From: Escherichia coli
GTDB lineage: Bacteria > Pseudomonadota > Gammaproteobacteria > Enterobacterales > Enterobacteriaceae
Assembly (NCBI RefSeq): GCF_016903815.1
Contig: NZ_CP069973.1
Length of the DNA stretch: 64,000 bases
Reading direction: 5' to 3' (one strand)
Shown here: positions 4,760 to 64,000 of the stretch, in pieces
Position numbering within the stretch: position 1 is the stretch's first letter
Layout: every line of letters begins with the position of its first letter
Position numbers and translations under genes: made by a program
The notes under the pieces: model-generated
Database searches by the model: none
Seen by the model: the letters and a program-made list of their open reading frames with translations, nothing else
What the model was told of the DNA's origin: nothing

Positions 4760-6922
4760 ATGGACGTTTCTTACCTGCTCGACAGCCTTAATGACAAACA
4801 GCGCGAAGCGGTGGCCGCGCCACGCAGCAACCTTCTGGTGCTGGCGGGCGCGGGCAGTGGTAAGACGCGCGTACTGGTGCACCGTATCGCCTGGCTGATG
4901 AGCGTGGAAAACTGCTCGCCATATTCGATTATGGCGGTAACGTTTACCAACAAAGCGGCGGCGGAGATGCGTCATCGTATCGGGCAGCTGATGGGCACCA
5001 GCCAGGGCGGCATGTGGGTCGGCACCTTCCACGGGCTGGCGCACCGTCTGCTGCGTGCGCACCATATGGACGCCAATCTGCCGCAGGATTTTCAGATCCT
5101 CGACAGCGAGGACCAGCTACGCCTGCTCAAACGCCTAATCAAGGCGATGAACCTCGACGAGAAGCAGTGGCCGCCGCGCCAGGCAATGTGGTACATCAAC
5201 AGCCAGAAAGATGAAGGCCTGCGTCCACATCATATTCAAAGCTACGGTAATCCGGTGGAGCAGACCTGGCAGAAGGTGTATCAGGCGTATCAGGAAGCGT
5301 GTGACCGCGCGGGCCTGGTGGACTTCGCCGAGCTGCTGCTACGTGCTCACGAGTTGTGGCTTAACAAGCCGCATATCCTTCAGCACTATCGCGAACGGTT
5401 TACCAATATCCTGGTGGACGAATTCCAGGATACCAACAACATTCAGTATGCGTGGATCCGCCTGCTGGCGGGCGATACCGGCAAAGTGATGATCGTTGGC
5501 GATGACGATCAGTCAATCTACGGCTGGCGTGGAGCGCAGGTGGAGAATATTCAGCGTTTCCTCAATGATTTCCCCGGTGCTGAAACTATCCGTCTGGAGC
5601 AGAACTACCGCTCTACCAGCAATATTCTGAGCGCCGCGAACGCCCTGATTGAAAACAACAACGGGCGTTTGGGTAAAAAACTGTGGACCGATGGCGCGGA
5701 TGGTGAGCCTATTTCCCTCTATTGCGCTTTTAACGAACTCGATGAAGCGCGTTTTGTGGTTAACCGTATCAAAACCTGGCAGGACAACGGCGGGGCGCTT
5801 GCCGAGTGCGCCATTCTCTACCGCAGCAACGCCCAGTCGCGTGTGCTGGAAGAAGCACTGTTACAGGCAAGTATGCCGTACCGTATTTACGGCGGGATGC
5901 GATTCTTCGAACGCCAGGAAATCAAAGATGCGCTCTCGTATCTGCGCCTGATTGCCAACCGTAATGACGACGCGGCCTTTGAGCGCGTGGTGAATACACC
6001 AACGCGGGGTATTGGTGACCGGACGCTGGACGTGGTACGTCAGACATCGCGCGATCGCCAGTTAACACTCTGGCAGGCATGTCGTGAACTGTTGCAGGAA
6101 AAAGCCCTCGCCGGACGTGCTGCCAGTGCCTTACAGCGGTTTATGGAACTGATCGACGCCTTAGCGCAGGAAACTGCCGATATGCCGCTGCATGTACAGA
6201 CTGACCGGGTAATTAAAGACTCCGGCCTGCGCACAATGTACGAGCAGGAGAAAGGCGAAAAAGGCCAGACGCGTATCGAAAACTTAGAGGAACTGGTGAC
6301 GGCGACGCGCCAGTTCAGCTACAACGAAGAAGACGAAGATTTAATGCCGCTGCAGGCGTTCCTCTCCCATGCGGCACTGGAAGCGGGCGAGGGGCAGGCG
6401 GATACCTGGCAGGATGCGGTGCAGTTGATGACGCTACACTCGGCGAAAGGTCTGGAGTTCCCGCAGGTGTTTATCGTCGGTATGGAAGAGGGCATGTTCC
6501 CAAGCCAGATGTCGCTGGATGAAGGTGGGCGTCTGGAAGAAGAACGCCGTCTGGCCTACGTTGGCGTAACCCGCGCGATGCAGAAACTGACGCTGACCTA
6601 CGCGGAAACCCGCCGTCTGTATGGCAAAGAAGTTTACCATCGCCCGTCGCGCTTTATCGGCGAGCTGCCGGAAGAGTGTGTGGAAGAGGTGCGCCTGCGC
6701 GCCACGGTAAGCCGCCCGGTCAGCCATCAACGGATGGGTACGCCGATGGTCGAGAACGACAGCGGCTACAAGCTCGGCCAGCGCGTACGCCACGCTAAGT
6801 TTGGTGAAGGCACCATTGTCAATATGGAAGGCAGCGGTGAGCATAGCCGTTTGCAGGTGGCGTTCCAGGGCCAGGGTATTAAATGGCTGGTGGCGGCTTA
6901 TGCCCGGTTGGAGACGGTGTGA
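4760..6922 (+). CDS. uvrD: DNA helicase II (UvrD)
   Basis: 720 aa from ATG at 4760 (MDVSYLLDSLNDKQREAV...); Walker A GAGSGKTRV; the track ORF at 4571 is an upstream in-frame extension. Confidence 0.95.
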   Translation: MDVSYLLDSLNDKQREAVAAPRSNLLVLAGAGSGKTRVLVHRIAWLMSVENCSPYSIMAVTFTNKAAAEMRHRIGQLMGTSQGGMWVGTFHGLAHRLLRAHHMDANLPQDFQILDSEDQLRLLKRLIKAMNLDEKQWPPRQAMWYINSQKDEGLRPHHIQSYGNPVEQTWQKVYQAYQEACDRAGLVDFAELLLRAHELWLNKPHILQHYRERFTNILVDEFQDTNNIQYAWIRLLAGDTGKVMIVGDDDQSIYGWRGAQVENIQRFLNDFPGAETIRLEQNYRSTSNILSAANALIENNNGRLGKKLWTDGADGEPISLYCAFNELDEARFVVNRIKTWQDNGGALAECAILYRSNAQSRVLEEALLQASMPYRIYGGMRFFERQEIKDALSYLRLIANRNDDAAFERVVNTPTRGIGDRTLDVVRQTSRDRQLTLWQACRELLQEKALAGRAASALQRFMELIDALAQETADMPLHVQTDRVIKDSGLRTMYEQEKGEKGQTRIENLEELVTATRQFSYNEEDEDLMPLQAFLSHAALEAGEGQADTWQDAVQLMTLHSAKGLEFPQVFIVGMEEGMFPSQMSLDEGGRLEEERRLAYVGVTRAMQKLTLTYAETRRLYGKEVYHRPSRFIGELPEECVEEVRLRATVSRPVSHQRMGTPMVENDSGYKLGQRVRHAKFGEGTIVNMEGSGEHSRLQVAFQGQGIKWLVAAYARLETV

Positions 6923-30165: not shown

Positions 30166-32408
<2,243 letters not shown>

Positions 32409-37842: not shown

Positions 37843-37948
37843 TGTCGCATCCGGCATACGCTGCCTGATGCGACGCTGGCGCGTCTTATCAGGCCTACAT
37901 TGGTGCTGGATCGGTAGACCGGATAAGGCGTCACGCCGCATCCGGCAA
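37843..37948. repeat. BIME / cluster of REP palindromic units
   Basis: Three REP-like units (tgtcgcatccggcatacg; gcctgatgcgacgctggcgcgtcttatcaggcctac; cggataaggcgtcacgccgcatccggcaag). Confidence 0.65.
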
Positions 37949-45874: not shown

Positions 45875-47416
<1,542 letters not shown>

Positions 47417-47484
47417 CCTTAAAGAACTGTGCTTTGCAGTGCTCACACAGATTGTCTGATGAAAATGAGCAGTAAAACCTCTAC

Positions 47485-47561
<77 letters not shown>

Positions 47562-47603
47562 AATTTGCACCGCAAATTTGAAGAGGTTTTAACTACATGT
47601 TAT

Positions 47604-47679
47604 GGGGCTATAGCTCAGCTGGGAGAGCGCCTGCTTTGCACGCAGGAGGTCTGCGGTTCGATCCCGCATAGCTCCACCA
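47604..47679 (+). tRNA. alaT: tRNA-Ala (anticodon TGC)
   Basis: GGGGCTATAGCTCAGCTGGGAGAGCGCCTGCTTTGCACGCAGGAGG...GCTCCACCA; G3:U70 alanine identity pair. Confidence 0.95.
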
Positions 47680-47863
47680 TCTCTGTAGTGATTAAATAAA
47701 AAATACTTCAGAGTGTACCTGCAAAGGTTCACTGCGAAGTTTTGCTCTTTAAAAATCTGGATCAAGCTGAAAATTGAAACACTGAACAATGAAAGTTGTT
47801 CGTGAGTCTCTCAAATTTTCGCAACACGATGATGAATCGAAAGAAACATCTTCGGGTTGTGAG

Positions 47864-50767
<2,904 letters not shown>

Positions 50768-50859
50768 ACAACGCCGAAGGTGTTTTGGCGGATGAGAGAA
50801 GATTTTCAGCCTGATACAGATTAAATCAGAACGCAGAAGCGGTCTGATGAAACAGAATT

Positions 50860-50979
50860 TGCCTGGCGGCCTTAGCGCGGTGGTCCCACCTGACCCCATG
50901 CCGAACTCAGAAGTGAAACGCCGTAGCGCCGATGGTAGTGTGGGGTCTCCCCATGCGAGAGTAGGGAACTGCCAGGCAT
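50860..50979 (+). rRNA. rrfA: 5S ribosomal RNA
   Basis: TGCCTGGCGGC...GGGAACTGCCAGGCAT; 120 nt. Confidence 0.95.
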
Positions 50980-55702: not shown

Positions 55703-56410
55703 GCACAGAAAACCCCCAGCTAGGCTGGGGGTTCCGGAAAGCTTTCAGCTTTAAGCCAGTTATTAAAACCCCTTTTGATTTGTTAAAACACCTTGCGGTC
55801 TGGCAACTGCAAGTGTCAAACAAGAAATCAAAAGGGGGTCCCAATGGGGAACGAAAAGAGCTTAGCGCACACCCGATGGAACTGTAAATATCACATAGTT
55901 TTTGCGCCAAAATACCGAAGACAGGTGTTCTACAGAGAGAAGCGTAGAGCAATAGGCAGTATTTTGAGAAAGCTGTGTGAGTGGAAAAGTGTACGGATTC
56001 TGGAAGCTGAATGCTGTGCAGATCATATCCATATGCTTGTGGAGATCCCGCCCAAAATGAGCGTATCCGGCTTTATGGGATATCTGAAAGGGAAAAGCAG
56101 TCTGATGCTTTACGAGCAGTTTGGTGATTTGAAATTCAAATACAGGAACAGGGAGTTCTGGTGCAGAGGGTACTACGTCGATACGGTGGGTAAGAACACG
56201 GCGAAGATACAGGATTACATAAAGCACCAGCTTGAAGAGGATAAAATGGGAGAGCAGTTATCGATTCCCTATCCGGGCAGCCCGTTTACGGGCCGTAAGT
56301 AACGAAGTTGGATGCAAATGTCAGATCGTGTGCGCCTGTTAGGGCGCGGCTGGTAAGAGAGCCTTATAGGCGCATTTGAAAAACCTCCGGCTATGCCGGA
56401 GGATATTTAT
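55703..56410 (+). mobile_element. IS200-family (IS200/IS605) insertion sequence; boundaries approximate
   Basis: Y1 transposase gene preceded by a hairpin (aaacccccagctaggctgggggtt, 55709-55732) and a long-range pairing ccccttttgatt / aatcaaaagggggtc that buries the RBS, and followed by a hairpin (cctccggctatgccggagg, 56384-56402); all typical of IS200. Confidence 0.7.
55844..56302 (+). CDS. tnpA: IS200-family Y1 (HUH) transposase TnpA
   Basis: 152 aa from ATG at 55844; HUH motif (DHIHMLVEIPP) and catalytic Tyr region (YIKHQ). Confidence 0.9.
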   Translation: MGNEKSLAHTRWNCKYHIVFAPKYRRQVFYREKRRAIGSILRKLCEWKSVRILEAECCADHIHMLVEIPPKMSVSGFMGYLKGKSSLMLYEQFGDLKFKYRNREFWCRGYYVDTVGKNTAKIQDYIKHQLEEDKMGEQLSIPYPGSPFTGRK

Positions 56411-57990: not shown

Positions 57991-58923
57991 TTACTTGTCC
58001 TGCCGCTGTGATGACATCAACGACGTCAGAAGCCGGTCTTTTTCCTGCCACAGTGAGTTCAGCCATTGCTGAAAATGGCGCTTAAAGCTTTTGTCATTGA
58101 TGTAGTCGCCATGTAACTCATCGGCAATAGGCTGTAAATCCACATGTACGACAATCCGCGTCAGTTTACCGCTTAACATATCGAAGAACGGCTGACGGTT
58201 ATTGTCCGGATAACACAGCGTAACATTAAGCAGTTTATCGAATTGTTTACCCAGTACATTTAGCGCCATCGCAATGCCTGCCGCCTTTGGTGGCAACAAG
58301 TTTTGAAAAGTGGAGTGGGTTTGCTGATGTTTTTCTTGCGTGAAACGGGAGCCTTCAACGAAATTGACAATGGTGGTGGGATGCAGGCGAAACTTTTCAC
58401 AAGAACGCCGAGTGGTTTCAACATCTTTACCACGTCGCTCCGGATGACGTAATAAATAAGCGCGGGAATAACGCTTCATAAACGGCATATCCAGCGCCCA
58501 GCATGCCAGGCCAAGAAAAGGCACCCAGGCCAGCTGCTGCTTGAGGAAATATTTATTCATCGGAATGTGCTTACGAAACAGCACGCACAGTACGACAATA
58601 TCTGCCCAACTACGGTGGTTACAAATAAGCAGATACCAGTTCTTCTTACTTAACCCTTCCAGCCCGTGAACTTCCCATTGCAGGTGTGGGTTCAGATGCA
58701 GTAATACCGCAAGGCATTCACACCAGCAATACATCATAAAATCACAAAAACGCGAAACCTTTCGCCAAATGACTGGCACAGGTAGCAATAGTTTTACAAT
58801 CCCGGCAATGATGATCGGGACGGAACAAAAAATAGTGACCAAAATGGTCAATACGATACTCAGCAAAAGGGTTATCGCAGCGAGTATTCTCGTCATAATG
58901 AATTTATTCAAAAGGTTAGCCAT
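57991..58923 (-). CDS. yihG: PlsC-family acyltransferase YihG
   Basis: 310 aa from ATG at 58923 ([14 protein letters not shown]...); acyltransferase NHRSWAD motif; alternative upstream start at 58947. Confidence 0.85.
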
Positions 58924-59286
58924 AGACAGTGCGCTAAAGAAGCGCAAGGCGCAGATTTTAGCAGAAAACGACCCAAATAACGGATGATCCTTAAGGAGAA
59001 AAATAATTCATATCTATCCACATTAGAAAAAATCCCATTATCTTAATTACTAGGGATGGTCTTATTTTTAACTGCATGAAAAACAAAGACAAACATCATG
59101 CTGTAAAAAGCATGATAATAAATTAAAAGCGATGTAAATAATTTATGCACAAAGTTATCCACATGACGATTTGCGAGCGATCCAGAAGATCTACAAAAGA
59201 TTTTCACGAAAAGCGGTGAAAAACTCATGTTTTCATCCTGTCTGTGGCATCCTTTACCCATAATCTGATAAACAGGCACGGACATT

Positions 59287-62073
59287 ATGGTTCAGATCCC
59301 CCAAAATCCACTTATCCTTGTAGATGGTTCATCTTATCTTTATCGCGCATATCACGCGTTTCCCCCGCTGACTAACAGCGCAGGCGAGCCGACCGGTGCG
59401 ATGTATGGTGTCCTCAACATGCTGCGCAGTCTGATCATGCAATATAAACCGACGCATGCAGCGGTGGTCTTTGACGCCAAGGGAAAAACCTTTCGTGATG
59501 AACTGTTTGAACATTACAAATCACATCGCCCGCCAATGCCGGACGATCTGCGAGCACAAATCGAACCTCTGCACGCGATGGTTAAAGCGATGGGACTGCC
59601 GCTGCTGGCGGTTTCTGGCGTAGAAGCGGACGACGTTATCGGTACTCTGGCGCGCGAAGCCGAAAAAGCCGGGCGTCCGGTGCTGATCAGCACTGGCGAT
59701 AAAGATATGGCGCAGCTGGTGACGCCAAATATTACGCTTATCAATACCATGACGAATACCATCCTCGGACCGGAAGAGGTGGTGAATAAGTACGGCGTGC
59801 CGCCAGAACTGATCATCGACTTCCTGGCGCTGATGGGTGACTCCTCCGATAACATCCCTGGCGTACCGGGCGTCGGTGAAAAAACCGCGCAGGCATTGCT
59901 GCAAGGTCTTGGCGGCCTGGATACGCTGTATGCCGAGCCAGAAAAAATTGCCGGGTTGAGCTTCCGTGGCGCGAAAACAATGGCAGCGAAGCTCGAGCAA
60001 AACAAAGAAGTTGCTTATCTCTCATACCAGCTGGCGACGATTAAAACCGACGTTGAACTGGAGCTGACCTGTGAACAACTGGAAGTGCAGCAACCGGCAG
60101 CGGAAGAGTTGTTGGGGCTGTTCAAAAAGTATGAGTTCAAACGCTGGACTGCTGATGTCGAAGCGGGCAAATGGTTACAGGCCAAAGGGGCAAAACCAGC
60201 CGCGAAGCCACAGGAAACCAGTGTTGCAGACGAAGCACCAGAAGTGACGGCAACGGTGATTTCTTATGACAACTACGTCACCATCCTTGATGAAGAAACA
60301 CTGAAAGCGTGGATTGCGAAGCTGGAAAAAGCGCCGGTATTTGCATTTGATACCGAAACCGACAGCCTTGATAACATCTCTGCTAACCTGGTCGGGCTTT
60401 CTTTTGCTATCGAGCCAGGCGTAGCGGCATATATTCCGGTTGCTCATGATTATCTTGATGCGCCCGATCAAATCTCTCGCGAGCGTGCACTCGAGTTGCT
60501 AAAACCGCTGCTGGAAGATGAAAAGGCGCTGAAGGTTGGGCAAAACCTGAAATACGATCGCGGTATTCTGGCGAATTACGGCATTGAGCTGCGTGGGATT
60601 GCGTTTGATACCATGCTGGAGTCCTACATTCTCAATAGCGTTGCCGGGCGTCACGATATGGACAGCCTCGCGGAACGTTGGTTGAAGCACAAAACCATCA
60701 CTTTTGAAGAGATTGCGGGTAAAGGCAAAAATCAACTGACCTTTAACCAGATTGCCCTCGAAGAGGCCGGACGTTACGCCGCCGAAGATGCTGATGTCAC
60801 CTTGCAGTTGCATCTGAAAATGTGGCCGGATCTGCAAAAACACAAAGGGCCGTTGAACGTCTTCGAGAATATCGAAATGCCGCTGGTGCCAGTGCTTTCA
60901 CGCATTGAACGTAACGGTGTGAAGATCGATCCGAAAGTGCTGCACAATCATTCTGAAGAGCTCACCCTTCGTCTGGCTGAGCTGGAAAAGAAAGCGCATG
61001 AAATTGCAGGTGAGGAATTTAACCTTTCTTCCACCAAGCAGTTACAAACCATTCTGTTTGAAAAACAGGGCATTAAACCGCTGAAGAAAACGCCGGGTGG
61101 CGCGCCGTCAACGTCGGAAGAGGTACTGGAAGAACTGGCGCTGGACTATCCGTTGCCAAAAGTGATTCTGGAGTATCGTGGTCTGGCGAAGCTGAAATCG
61201 ACCTACACCGACAAGCTACCGCTGATGATCAACCCGAAAACCGGGCGTGTACATACCTCTTATCACCAGGCAGTAACCGCAACGGGACGTTTATCGTCAA
61301 CCGATCCTAACCTGCAAAACATTCCGGTGCGTAACGAAGAAGGTCGTCGTATCCGCCAGGCGTTTATTGCGCCAGAGGATTATGTGATTGTCTCGGCGGA
61401 CTACTCGCAGATTGAACTGCGCATTATGGCGCATCTCTCGCGTGACAAAGGCTTGCTGACCGCATTCGCGGAAGGAAAAGATATCCACCGGGCTACGGCG
61501 GCAGAAGTGTTTGGTTTGCCACTGGAAACCGTAACCAGCGAGCAACGCCGTAGCGCGAAAGCGATCAACTTTGGTCTGATTTATGGCATGAGTGCTTTCG
61601 GTCTGGCGCGGCAATTGAACATTCCACGTAAAGAAGCGCAGAAGTACATGGACCTTTACTTCGAACGCTACCCTGGCGTGCTGGAGTATATGGAACGCAC
61701 CCGTGCTCAGGCGAAAGAGCAGGGCTACGTTGAAACGCTGGACGGACGCCGTCTGTATCTGCCGGATATCAAATCCAGCAATGGGGCTCGTCGTGCAGCG
61801 GCTGAACGTGCAGCCATTAACGCGCCAATGCAGGGAACCGCCGCCGACATTATCAAACGGGCGATGATTGCCGTTGATGCGTGGCTACAGGCTGAGCAAC
61901 CGCGTGTACGTATGATCATGCAGGTACACGATGAACTGGTATTTGAAGTTCATAAAGATGATGTCGATGCCGTCGCGAAGCAGATTCATCAACTGATGGA
62001 AAACTGTACCCGTCTGGATGTGCCGTTGCTGGTGGAAGTGGGGAGTGGCGAAAACTGGGATCAGGCGCACTAA
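59287..62073 (+). CDS. polA: DNA polymerase I
   Basis: 928 aa; 5' nuclease, 3'-5' exonuclease and polymerase domains recognisable. Confidence 0.97.
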
Positions 62074-62220
62074 GATTCGCCTGAACATGCCCTTTTTTCG
62101 TAAGTAAGCAACATAAGCTGTCACGTTTTGTGATGGCTATTAGAAATTCCTATGCAACAACTGAAAAAAAATTACAAAAAGTGCTTTCTGAACTGAACAA
62201 AAAAGAGTAAAGTTAGTCGC

Positions 62221-62329
62221 GTAGGGTACAGAGGTAAGATGTTCTATCTTTCAGACCTTTTACTTCACGTAATCGGATTTGGCTGAATATTTTAGCCGCC
62301 CCAGTCAGTAATGACTGGGGCGTTTTTTA
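62221..62329 (+). ncRNA. spf: Spot 42 small regulatory RNA
   Basis: GTAGGGTACAGAGGTAAGATGTTCTATCTTTCAGACC...CCCCAGTCAGTAATGACTGGGGCGTTTTTT matches remembered Spot 42 (~109 nt) with its intrinsic terminator; canonical polA-engB location. Confidence 0.9.
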
Positions 62330-62352
62330 TTGGGCGAAAGAAAAGATCCGTA

Positions 62353-62436
62353 ATGCCTGATACGCCATGTTTATCAGGCCAACGGTAAAATCGTAATCTA
62401 TTGAATTTACGGGCCGGATACGCCACATCCGGCACA
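62353..62436. repeat. REP-like palindromic units between spf and engB
   Basis: gcctgatacgccatgtttatcaggc and gccggatacgccacatccggc imperfect palindromes. Confidence 0.45.
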
Positions 62437-62454
62437 AGCATTAAGGCAAGAAAA

Positions 62455-63087
62455 TCATTCGCCGTCCTGCGTTTCTTCTACAGGCTGCATCTCGCTAAAC
62501 CAGGTATCCAGTTTCTGCCGCAGCTTGTCCACGCCTTGTTTCTTCAACGAAGAAAACGTTTCAACCTGCACATCACCGTTAAACGCCAGCACCGCTTCAC
62601 GCACCATATTCAATTGCGCTTTACGTGCGCCGCTTGCCAGTTTGTCCGCTTTGGTCAGCAGCACCAGCACGGCGATATTGCTGTCTACCGCCCACTCAAT
62701 CATCTGCTGATCCAAATCTTTCAGCGGATGGCGAATATCCATTAGCACCACCAGACCTTGCAGGCTCTGACGTTTTTCGAGGTATTCGCCGAGCGCGCGT
62801 TGCCATTTGCGCTTCATCTCTTCCGGGACTTCCGCGTAGCCATAGCCGGGCAGGTCAACCAGACGCTTGCCGTCAGCCACTTCAAACAGGTTGATAAGCT
62901 GGGTGCGCCCTGGGGTTTTTGAGGTACGAGCCAGGCTTTTCTGGTTAGTCAGCGTGTTCAGCGCGCTGGATTTACCTGCGTTGGAACGGCCTGCAAAAGC
63001 CACTTCAATTCCGGTATCGGAAGGTAGGTGGCGAATATCAGGCGCACTCATCACAAAATGCGTCTGTTGATAATTCAAATTAGTCAA
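62455..63087 (-). CDS. engB: ribosome biogenesis GTPase EngB (YihA)
   Basis: 210 aa; G1 motif [10 protein letters not shown]4 TKADK. Confidence 0.95.
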
Positions 63088-63358
63088 AGCGGTCGTCTCC
63101 GTCAGTCAAAGCTTTGCGGCGATTATACCTGAACCATAATAAAAGGCGGATTTTTCGGCGTGAGCGTTGTAAGTAAAAGCCATACGCTTTGTGAGACATT
63201 GCCGATAGTCTTTATGCGAAATAGCAGAGAAAATTCTGCGATGCATGTCAAATAAGCTATATAAATCAGTTAATTGCTTTTATATAAAACTCTGAAAATG
63301 TGCAAATACTGATGGCGGTTGATTGTTTGTTTAAAGCAAAGGCGTAAAGTAGCACCCA

Positions 63359-63603
63359 TAGAGCGAGGACGCTAACAGGAACAATGACTCAGGATGAGGG
63401 TCAGGAGCGCCAGGAGGCGAAGACAGAGGATTGTCAGGAAGACAAACGTCCGGAGACGTAATTAAACGGAAATGGAATCAACACGGATTGTTCCGGCTAA
63501 TGGAAAAACAGGGTGTGTTGGCGGCCTGCAAGGATTGTAAGACCCGTTAAGGGTTATGAGTCAGGAAAAAAGGCGACAGAGTAATCTGTCGCCTTTTTTC
63601 TTT
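63359..63603 (+). ncRNA. csrC: CsrC small RNA (CsrA-sequestering)
   Basis: Starts ATAGAGCGAGGACGCTAACAGGAACAATGACTCAGGATGAGGGTCAGGAGCG; many GGA motifs; ends at terminator aaaaaaggcgacagagtaatctgtcgccttttttc; ~245 nt; canonical engB-yihI location. Confidence 0.85.
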
Positions 63604-63668
63604 GCTTGCTTTCTGTTAGATTCCGCCGCAAATCTATACTGAATAAAACGGCTAAAAGACGAACCATT

Positions 63669-64000
63669 ATGAAACCATCATCTTCAAACTCACGCAGCAA
63701 AGGTCATGCAAAAGCGCGTCGAAAAACACGCGAGGAGCTGGATCAGGAAGCTCGTGACCGTAAGCGTCAGAAAAAACGTCGTGGTCATGCGCCGGGCAGC
63801 CGCGCAGCGGGCGGTAACACCACGTCAGGCAGCAAAGGCCAGAACGCACCGAAAGATCCACGTATTGGCAGTAAAACCCCTATTCCATTGGGCGTGACTG
63901 AAAAAGTCACCAAACAGCACAAACCGAAGAGTGAGAAACCTATGCTTTCACCGCAGGCGGAGTTGGAGTTACTGGAAACGGATGAGCGTCTGGATGCGCT
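63669..64000 (+). CDS. yihI: Der GTPase-activating protein YihI, N-terminal fragment (3' end outside window)
   Basis: ATG at 63669; [39 protein letters not shown]... highly basic N-terminus; open to window end. Confidence 0.85.

Follow-up and report, generated by a model that had tools for sequence, protein, structure and literature searches.

Towards its 3' end, the window (the whole stretch of Escherichia coli DNA that was analysed, 64,000 nt in length) carries five genes in the order polA – spf – engB/yihA (opposite strand) – csrC – yihI, two of which specify small regulatory RNAs. Coordinates are given as window positions.

59287–62073, plus strand: polA, encoding DNA polymerase I (928-aa open reading frame, named from public annotation); the neighbour upstream of spf
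62221–62329, plus strand: spf, encoding the Spot 42 sRNA (109 nt; the RefSeq K-12 end corresponds to 62331)
62455–63087, minus strand: engB (yihA), encoding a ribosome-biogenesis GTPase (210 aa, TTG start); located between the two sRNA genes
63358–63603, plus strand: csrC, encoding the CsrC sRNA (246 nt in the current K-12 annotation; the classical 245-nt form starts at 63359)
63669–64000, plus strand: 5' part of yihI, encoding the Der GTPase-activating protein (from annotation and alignment); downstream of csrC and continuing beyond the window

The engB/yihA assignment is based on the open reading frame listing, on the RefSeq annotation of identical DNA as YihA/YsxC, and on K-12 b3865. The start of spf lies 147 nt downstream of the end of polA. 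A preliminary description of this DNA had placed CsrC and Spot 42 on either side of engB and had proposed a covariance-model search as the means of checking this. A scan of positions 58000–64000 with the Rfam models at their gathering thresholds returned exactly two matches, to CsrC (277.9 bits against a threshold of 61) and to Spot 42 (122.8 bits against 80), both far above threshold and in agreement with the curated K-12 MG1655 annotation, in which spf, spfP and csrC occupy the homologous positions. The boundaries given originally, 63359–63603 and 62221–62329, correspond to the classical lengths of 245 and 109 nt and differ by 1–2 nt from the current RefSeq ends. It is as good as certain that the region comprises the standard E. 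coli genes for Spot 42 (spf) and CsrC at their usual place on the chromosome (polA-spf-engB/yihA-csrC-yihI), and no observation speaks against this. Both sRNAs are intact, textbook E. coli regulators at their known positions, with ordinary sequence and context, and both were already known; indeed, they are among the best-studied E. coli sRNAs, and in terms of biology the analysis of this locus adds nothing new.

The match of csrC to the Rfam CsrC model (RF00084) extends over positions 63358–63611 on the plus strand with an E-value of 1e-88, and covers model positions 1–255 of 255 without truncation. The gene is identical at 245 of 246 nt to K-12 csrC (b4457), the sole substitution being at 63501 (T/U here, A in K-12). 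The Rfam alignment puts this base in the apical loop of the central hairpin, directly before a GGA. The T/U allele at this position is common within E. coli, with 100% matches to the present sequence being found in many lineages, including O157:H7. The GGA count that had been suggested as a second check on CsrC revealed 14 such motifs in the 246 nt of the plus strand, as opposed to only two TCC (GGA when read from the minus strand). The count is the highest within the 64 kb on either strand, where the mean is 3.4 per 246 nt (standard deviation 1.95), and is in keeping with the 'many GGA motifs' described originally. Shuffled versions of CsrC in which dinucleotide composition, and hence GG and GA content, was preserved reached 14 GGA in 52 of 5000 cases.

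In order to place the motifs within the RNA, the Rfam consensus structure was projected onto the window sequence, which forms 59 of the 59 consensus pairs. The distribution of GGA motifs in this structure, listed by start position, is as follows.

63367, 63392, 63413, 63428, 63452 and 63532: six motifs in hairpin loops
63378, 63404, 63437, 63468 and 63474: five motifs wholly in single-stranded linkers
63485 and 63502: two motifs in the longer central hairpin
63564: one motif at the foot of the terminator, straddling linker and stem

The predicted fold of CsrC is considerably more stable than those of shuffled controls (z = −6.98; 0 of 200 shuffles as good). The single-sequence minimum free energy fold, which features a long-range helix between the 5' and 3' regions and places only four GGA motifs fully within hairpin loops, was set aside in favour of the consensus structure, since the latter is supported by pairing across species.

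Sequences associated with the initiation and termination of csrC transcription were examined also, and the following elements were recognised.

63168–63173, plus strand: TGTAAG, an upstream UvrY half-site 16 bp farther upstream than TGTGAGACATTGCCGATA
63190–63207, plus strand: TGTGAGACATTGCCGATA, the UvrY-binding inverted repeat, −168 to −151 relative to the csrC start
63323–63328, plus strand: TTGTTT, a putative −35-like element at −35 spacing from TAAAGT
63345–63350, plus strand: TAAAGT, the putative csrC −10 hexamer as read from the sequence, 7 nt upstream of +1
63563–63602, plus strand: csrC intrinsic terminator, a hairpin of A-tract/GC-core/T-tract type for which the terminator scan gave an 18-pair stem, with a T-rich tail after it

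The terminator contains a 16-nt perfect inverted repeat (63565–63580 and 63585–63600), 12 of the 16 pairs of which are invariant across 43 species, and together with the 18-pair stem and T-rich tail this bears out its earlier characterisation as strong. A scan of positions 62000–63750 with a sigma-70 consensus returned no promoter-like sites as compared with 2.0 expected. The known promoters of both sRNA genes deviate too far from the consensus to be detected in this way, and the proposed −10 and −35 elements are based instead on position and cross-species conservation. For csrC, the elements GTAaAGT and TTGT are conserved at 90% or above in 41 upstream regions. The repeat TGTGAGACATTGCCGATA occurs once in the window and is an exact match to the 18-nt sequence that Zere et al. 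2015 identified by footprinting (PMC4682653). In the same study the UvrY ChIP-exo crosslinking region at csrC extended from −223 to −143, and the window repeat falls inside this interval. A TGTGAGA half-site at −168 to −153 is present in 27 of the 41 upstream regions (from 40 other species plus the window). Potential CRP sites were also sought, using the consensus TGTGA-N6-TCACA with up to three mismatches, and gave 168 matches in the window as compared with 221 expected by chance. Since matches are fewer than expected by chance, no statistical weight attaches to the CRP-like sites at 62129–62144 (two mismatches), 63190–63205 and 63237–63252, the second of which overlaps the UvrY repeat.

The second sRNA gene, spf, is 100% identical (as mapped to 62221–62331) to K-12 spf b3864. 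The corresponding match to RF00021 lies at 62211–62329 on the plus strand (E = 3e-25) and spans the full model, positions 1–115. The minimum free energy fold comprises three hairpins, of which the last is the terminator (z = −5.08; 0 of 200 shuffles as good). Features within or adjacent to the gene are listed below.

62208–62213, plus strand: TAAAGT, the putative spf −10 hexamer, 7 nt upstream of +1, which failed the consensus promoter scan
62239–62286, plus strand: spfP, a 15-codon open reading frame within Spot 42 (MFYLSDLLLHVIGFG*), an exact match to K-12 spfP b4837
62297–62322, plus strand: spf intrinsic terminator, an 11-pair stem with eight GC pairs and a perfect 11-nt inverted repeat, followed by TTTTTT at 62323–62328

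A GAGG sequence sits 7 nt upstream of the spfP ATG. Aoyama et al. 2022 showed that the SpfP peptide is produced and binds CRP, making Spot 42 a dual-function RNA (PMC8916003). This dual function, the 15-aa SpfP component of which is intact here, was absent from the preliminary description, whose statement that Spot 42 is intact is otherwise borne out by the K-12 identity, the full-length Rfam match and the uninterrupted spfP. It was also observed that spf and csrC have an identical −10-like hexamer, TAAAGT, located in both cases 7 nt from the annotated start, which may reflect coincidence or, possibly, similar promoter kinetics.

The two sRNAs had also been proposed to account for the long non-coding spacers on either side of engB. 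This holds in part, in that both spacers are partly filled by the RNA genes, but Spot 42 occupies only 109 of the 381 nt (29%) between polA and engB, and CsrC 246 of the 581 nt (42%) between engB and yihI. Two REP-like palindromes, the promoters and the UvrY-binding repeat known from the literature (PMC4682653) take up much of what is left; on the engB–csrC side this is the UvrY site together with the region of the divergent promoters. The REP-like elements lie after the spf terminator and before the stop codon of engB.

62355–62379, plus strand: REP-like imperfect palindrome, GCCTGATACGCC…ATCAGGC
62413–62433, plus strand: REP-like imperfect palindrome, GCCGGATACGCC…ATCCGGC

The REP-like motif GCCKGATRCGNC has 20 matches in the window versus 4.95 expected, and two exact copies are in the spf–engB spacer. 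Both palindromes fold as hairpins; they were identified by motif search and folding, having been missed by an inverted-repeat finder operated with a minimum length of 10, and no repeat feature is listed at their positions in the K-12 record. Further occurrences of the motif are found elsewhere in the window, for example as a cluster at 37844–37946. Comparison of the polA-yihA spacer with that of K-12 revealed five differing positions. One is an indel of a single nucleotide upstream of spf, at 62090; the other four (62362, 62366, 62388 and 62392) are substitutions in the region of the REP-like palindromes.

The distribution of the locus was then considered, both within E. coli and in related species. 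The locus is present in 5424–5425 of 5426 complete E. coli genomes. Sequences at least 99% identical to csrC were found in 5359 of 5424 E. coli records, and to spf in 5423 of the 5424 records with a match, whereas only 507 records reach 99% across the whole 1751-nt region; both RNAs are therefore more conserved than their surroundings. Matches to csrC were recorded at 5488 places in the 5424 records, with a maximum of two per genome, as against exactly 5424 for spf. It follows that approximately 64 genomes have a second csrC-like stretch that excludes spf; it could have arisen by duplication or be just a partial copy. Records labelled as plasmids contain two of the spf matches and two of the csrC matches; such records may in fact be chromosomal replicons under a wrong label, or the matches may sit in large inserts of chromosomal DNA.

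Homologues outside E. coli were retrieved with a 31-nt degenerate pattern derived from the conserved CsrC core, applied as a single exact-pattern scan of species-representative genomes. This yielded 42 loci, from Citrobacter, Salmonella, Escherichia, Pluralibacter, Pseudocitrobacter, Superficieibacter, Trabulsiella, Leclercia, Lelliottia, Yokenella, Enterobacter and others. The polA–spf–engB–csrC–yihI order is kept in every locus with enough flanking sequence, representing about a dozen genera. In all 33 such loci, each from another species, spf is on the csrC strand, 907–1155 nt upstream of csrC, and is full-length and 96–100% identical to the window gene, while the SpfP peptide is invariant in the 33 species. 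A polA tblastn probe gave 85.5–100% identity in 31 loci. One of the contigs encountered, CACSKA010000012.1, is titled 'Chryseobacterium sp. 18061' despite bearing a typical enterobacterial polA-spf-engB-csrC-yihI locus with an spf that is 99% identical; the assembly is probably mislabelled or contaminated.

Across the 42 species the identity of CsrC falls to about 80%, and yet the number of GGA motifs remains at 13–16. Of the 14 motifs in the window, 13 have a counterpart no more than three alignment columns away in at least 41 of the 42 species. The search pattern itself fixes columns 63391–63421; with these columns and the terminator excluded, identity is 94% at GGA positions and 76% at the others. 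The consensus structure, which derives from an Rfam model built on the same family, is 91.5% paired across the 43 sequences, compared with 39–47% when the 3' partners are slid by one to three columns. Compensatory changes were observed at five CsrC pairs, including one in helix 1 for which 24 sequences have AU and 18 have GC, although covariation is modest because the species compared are all close relatives (Enterobacteriaceae). As judged from the alignment, the GGA motifs of CsrC (94% identity) are under much stronger selection than the intervening sequence (76%), a pattern that would illustrate the sponge mechanism described below.

The treatment of csrC in public records is at odds with these data. 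RefSeq (PGAP) places a pseudo-CDS, described as 'hypothetical protein; frameshifted; internal stop', at window positions 63384–63550, inside csrC, which amounts to a proposal that the region is a decayed protein-coding gene. The feature recurs in the RefSeq records of BL21 and of a strain that is 100% identical across the locus, and a 'hypothetical protein' is the sole feature at csrC in every one of 60 RefSeq E. coli genomes sampled at even intervals. Nevertheless, the coding potential of the region was rejected, with stop codons occurring in all three forward frames of 63384–63550 and no forward open reading frame of 40 aa or more being present within csrC. Likewise, the ATG at 63384 is kept in only six of the 42 other species (21 have ACG), and the longest same-strand open reading frame varies from 10 to 55 aa among csrC homologues, indicating that there is no conserved reading frame. 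What is conserved is the set of GGA motifs and base pairs, not codons, and this is consistent both with the Rfam score and with the decision of the K-12 curators to annotate an ncRNA. The probability that csrC is a pseudogene is thus vanishingly small; the pseudo-CDS is an annotation artefact that is effectively refuted as a gene. Since same-strand open reading frames over csrC reach 55 aa in some other species, it was probably seeded by a spurious open reading frame called in some other genome.

The accompanying prediction that a protein-only annotation would miss the two RNAs proved accurate. The 100%-identical RefSeq record lists only the three protein genes polA, yihA and yihI and the pseudo 'hypothetical protein', no ncRNA being among its features, and the sampled RefSeq records mostly show nothing at spf, or only the spfP CDS. 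The practical value of the analysis therefore lies in annotation, namely the recovery of RNA genes omitted by RefSeq automated annotation of most E. coli genomes, and the csrC locus should be masked in pangenome counts of E. coli pseudogenes or 'empty' intergenic regions.

With the region taken as a pair of canonical sRNA genes, their action may be outlined by reference to the literature on K-12-type genes, from which CsrA binding, activation by UvrY, repression by CRP, Hfq dependence and SpfP function are presumed to extend to the present strain. CsrC would act as a protein-sponge RNA whose dozen or so GGA motifs, exposed in short loops of hairpins and in unpaired linkers, would bind CsrA dimers and titrate CsrA away from its mRNA targets. 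CsrC, like CsrB, has been described as sequestering CsrA dimers via multiple high-affinity GGA sites (PMC7652899), an activity established for the K-12 RNA, from which the present one differs by a single nucleotide. Transcription of csrC would be stimulated by phosphorylated UvrY, of the BarA-UvrY system, bound at the upstream inverted repeat, and would stop at the strong intrinsic terminator. Synthesis of CsrC is also stimulated by ppGpp and DksA, and its turnover proceeds via CsrD and RNase E (PMC7652899; PMC4682653). Spot 42, for its part, is expected to function as an Hfq-dependent base-pairing sRNA that additionally encodes the 15-aa SpfP, a binder of CRP. Published work shows that Spot 42 is repressed by cAMP-CRP and uses base pairing to silence genes for non-preferred carbon sources, and that SpfP blocks activation by CRP at some promoters (PMC8916003).

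The nearest known systems are the K-12 genes themselves. K-12 CsrC (b4457; RF00084, clan CL00106, the CsrB/RsmB family) has the same yihA/yihI flanks, terminator and UvrY repeat, and differs from the window CsrC by the one substitution at 63501; K-12 Spot 42 (spf, b3864; RF00021) with spfP (b4837) is identical in the RNA, the SpfP open reading frame, the terminator and the position after polA. CsrB, the larger E. coli paralogue of CsrC, shares its CsrA-sequestering action, its activator UvrY and its Rfam clan. However, it contains 22 GGA sequences (PMC7652899) as opposed to 14 in the window CsrC, is encoded at a different locus (yqcC/syd), and requires IHF for activation, which csrC does not (PMC4682653; PMC7652899; PMC1488887).

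The fixed arrangement of these genes raises the question of whether spf, engB and csrC comprise a functionally coupled unit, in which a carbon-status pair of sRNAs is tied to a GTPase of ribosome biogenesis. Each of the 33 loci, which represent about a dozen genera, has the same gene order and relative orientation, and Kulkarni et al. 2006 noted that csrC is always near yihA/yihI (PMC1488887). However, the sampled species are all Enterobacteriaceae, in which core-gene synteny is generally high, and conserved order alone accordingly proves little. In Salmonella, Spot 42 raises the levels of CsrC but not of CsrB (PMC7591399), and passages of the same source describe both Spot 42 and CsrC as being repressed by CRP-cAMP, citing Pannuri et al. 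2016 for CRP binding at csrC. The −10 hexamer TAAAGT is common to the two promoters, and UvrY/SirA crosslinks at both in ChIP-exo (PMC4682653), but SirA does not regulate spf expression (PMC7591399), and Spot 42 and CsrC have separate promoters and terminators. On balance, functional coupling of the three genes seems unlikely. The more specific proposal, that an spf–engB–csrC module coordinates carbon status, CsrA activity and ribosome biogenesis in cis, is less likely still; such coupling could feasibly be exerted via shared local occupancy by UvrY or CRP, or via promoter interference with the divergent engB promoter. The only support for cis coupling comes from conserved synteny among close relatives and the published link from Spot 42 to CsrC.

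Other RNA features were observed elsewhere in the window, and are listed below.

30520–30771, plus strand: Rfam match to 'Erse small RNA' (RF02757), 317 bits against a gathering threshold of 138
45875–50977, plus strand: complete rRNA operon, with the following parts
45875–47416, plus strand: 16S rRNA
47485–47561, plus strand: tRNA-Ile(GAT)
47604–47679, plus strand: tRNA-Ala(TGC)
47863–50767, plus strand: 23S rRNA
50862–50977, plus strand: 5S rRNA
55711–55834, plus strand: Rfam match to STnc490, an Hfq-binding RNA (RF01405), 146.1 bits against a gathering threshold of 56

An Rfam match to StyR-44 was also recorded at 47747–47855, just upstream of the 23S gene.
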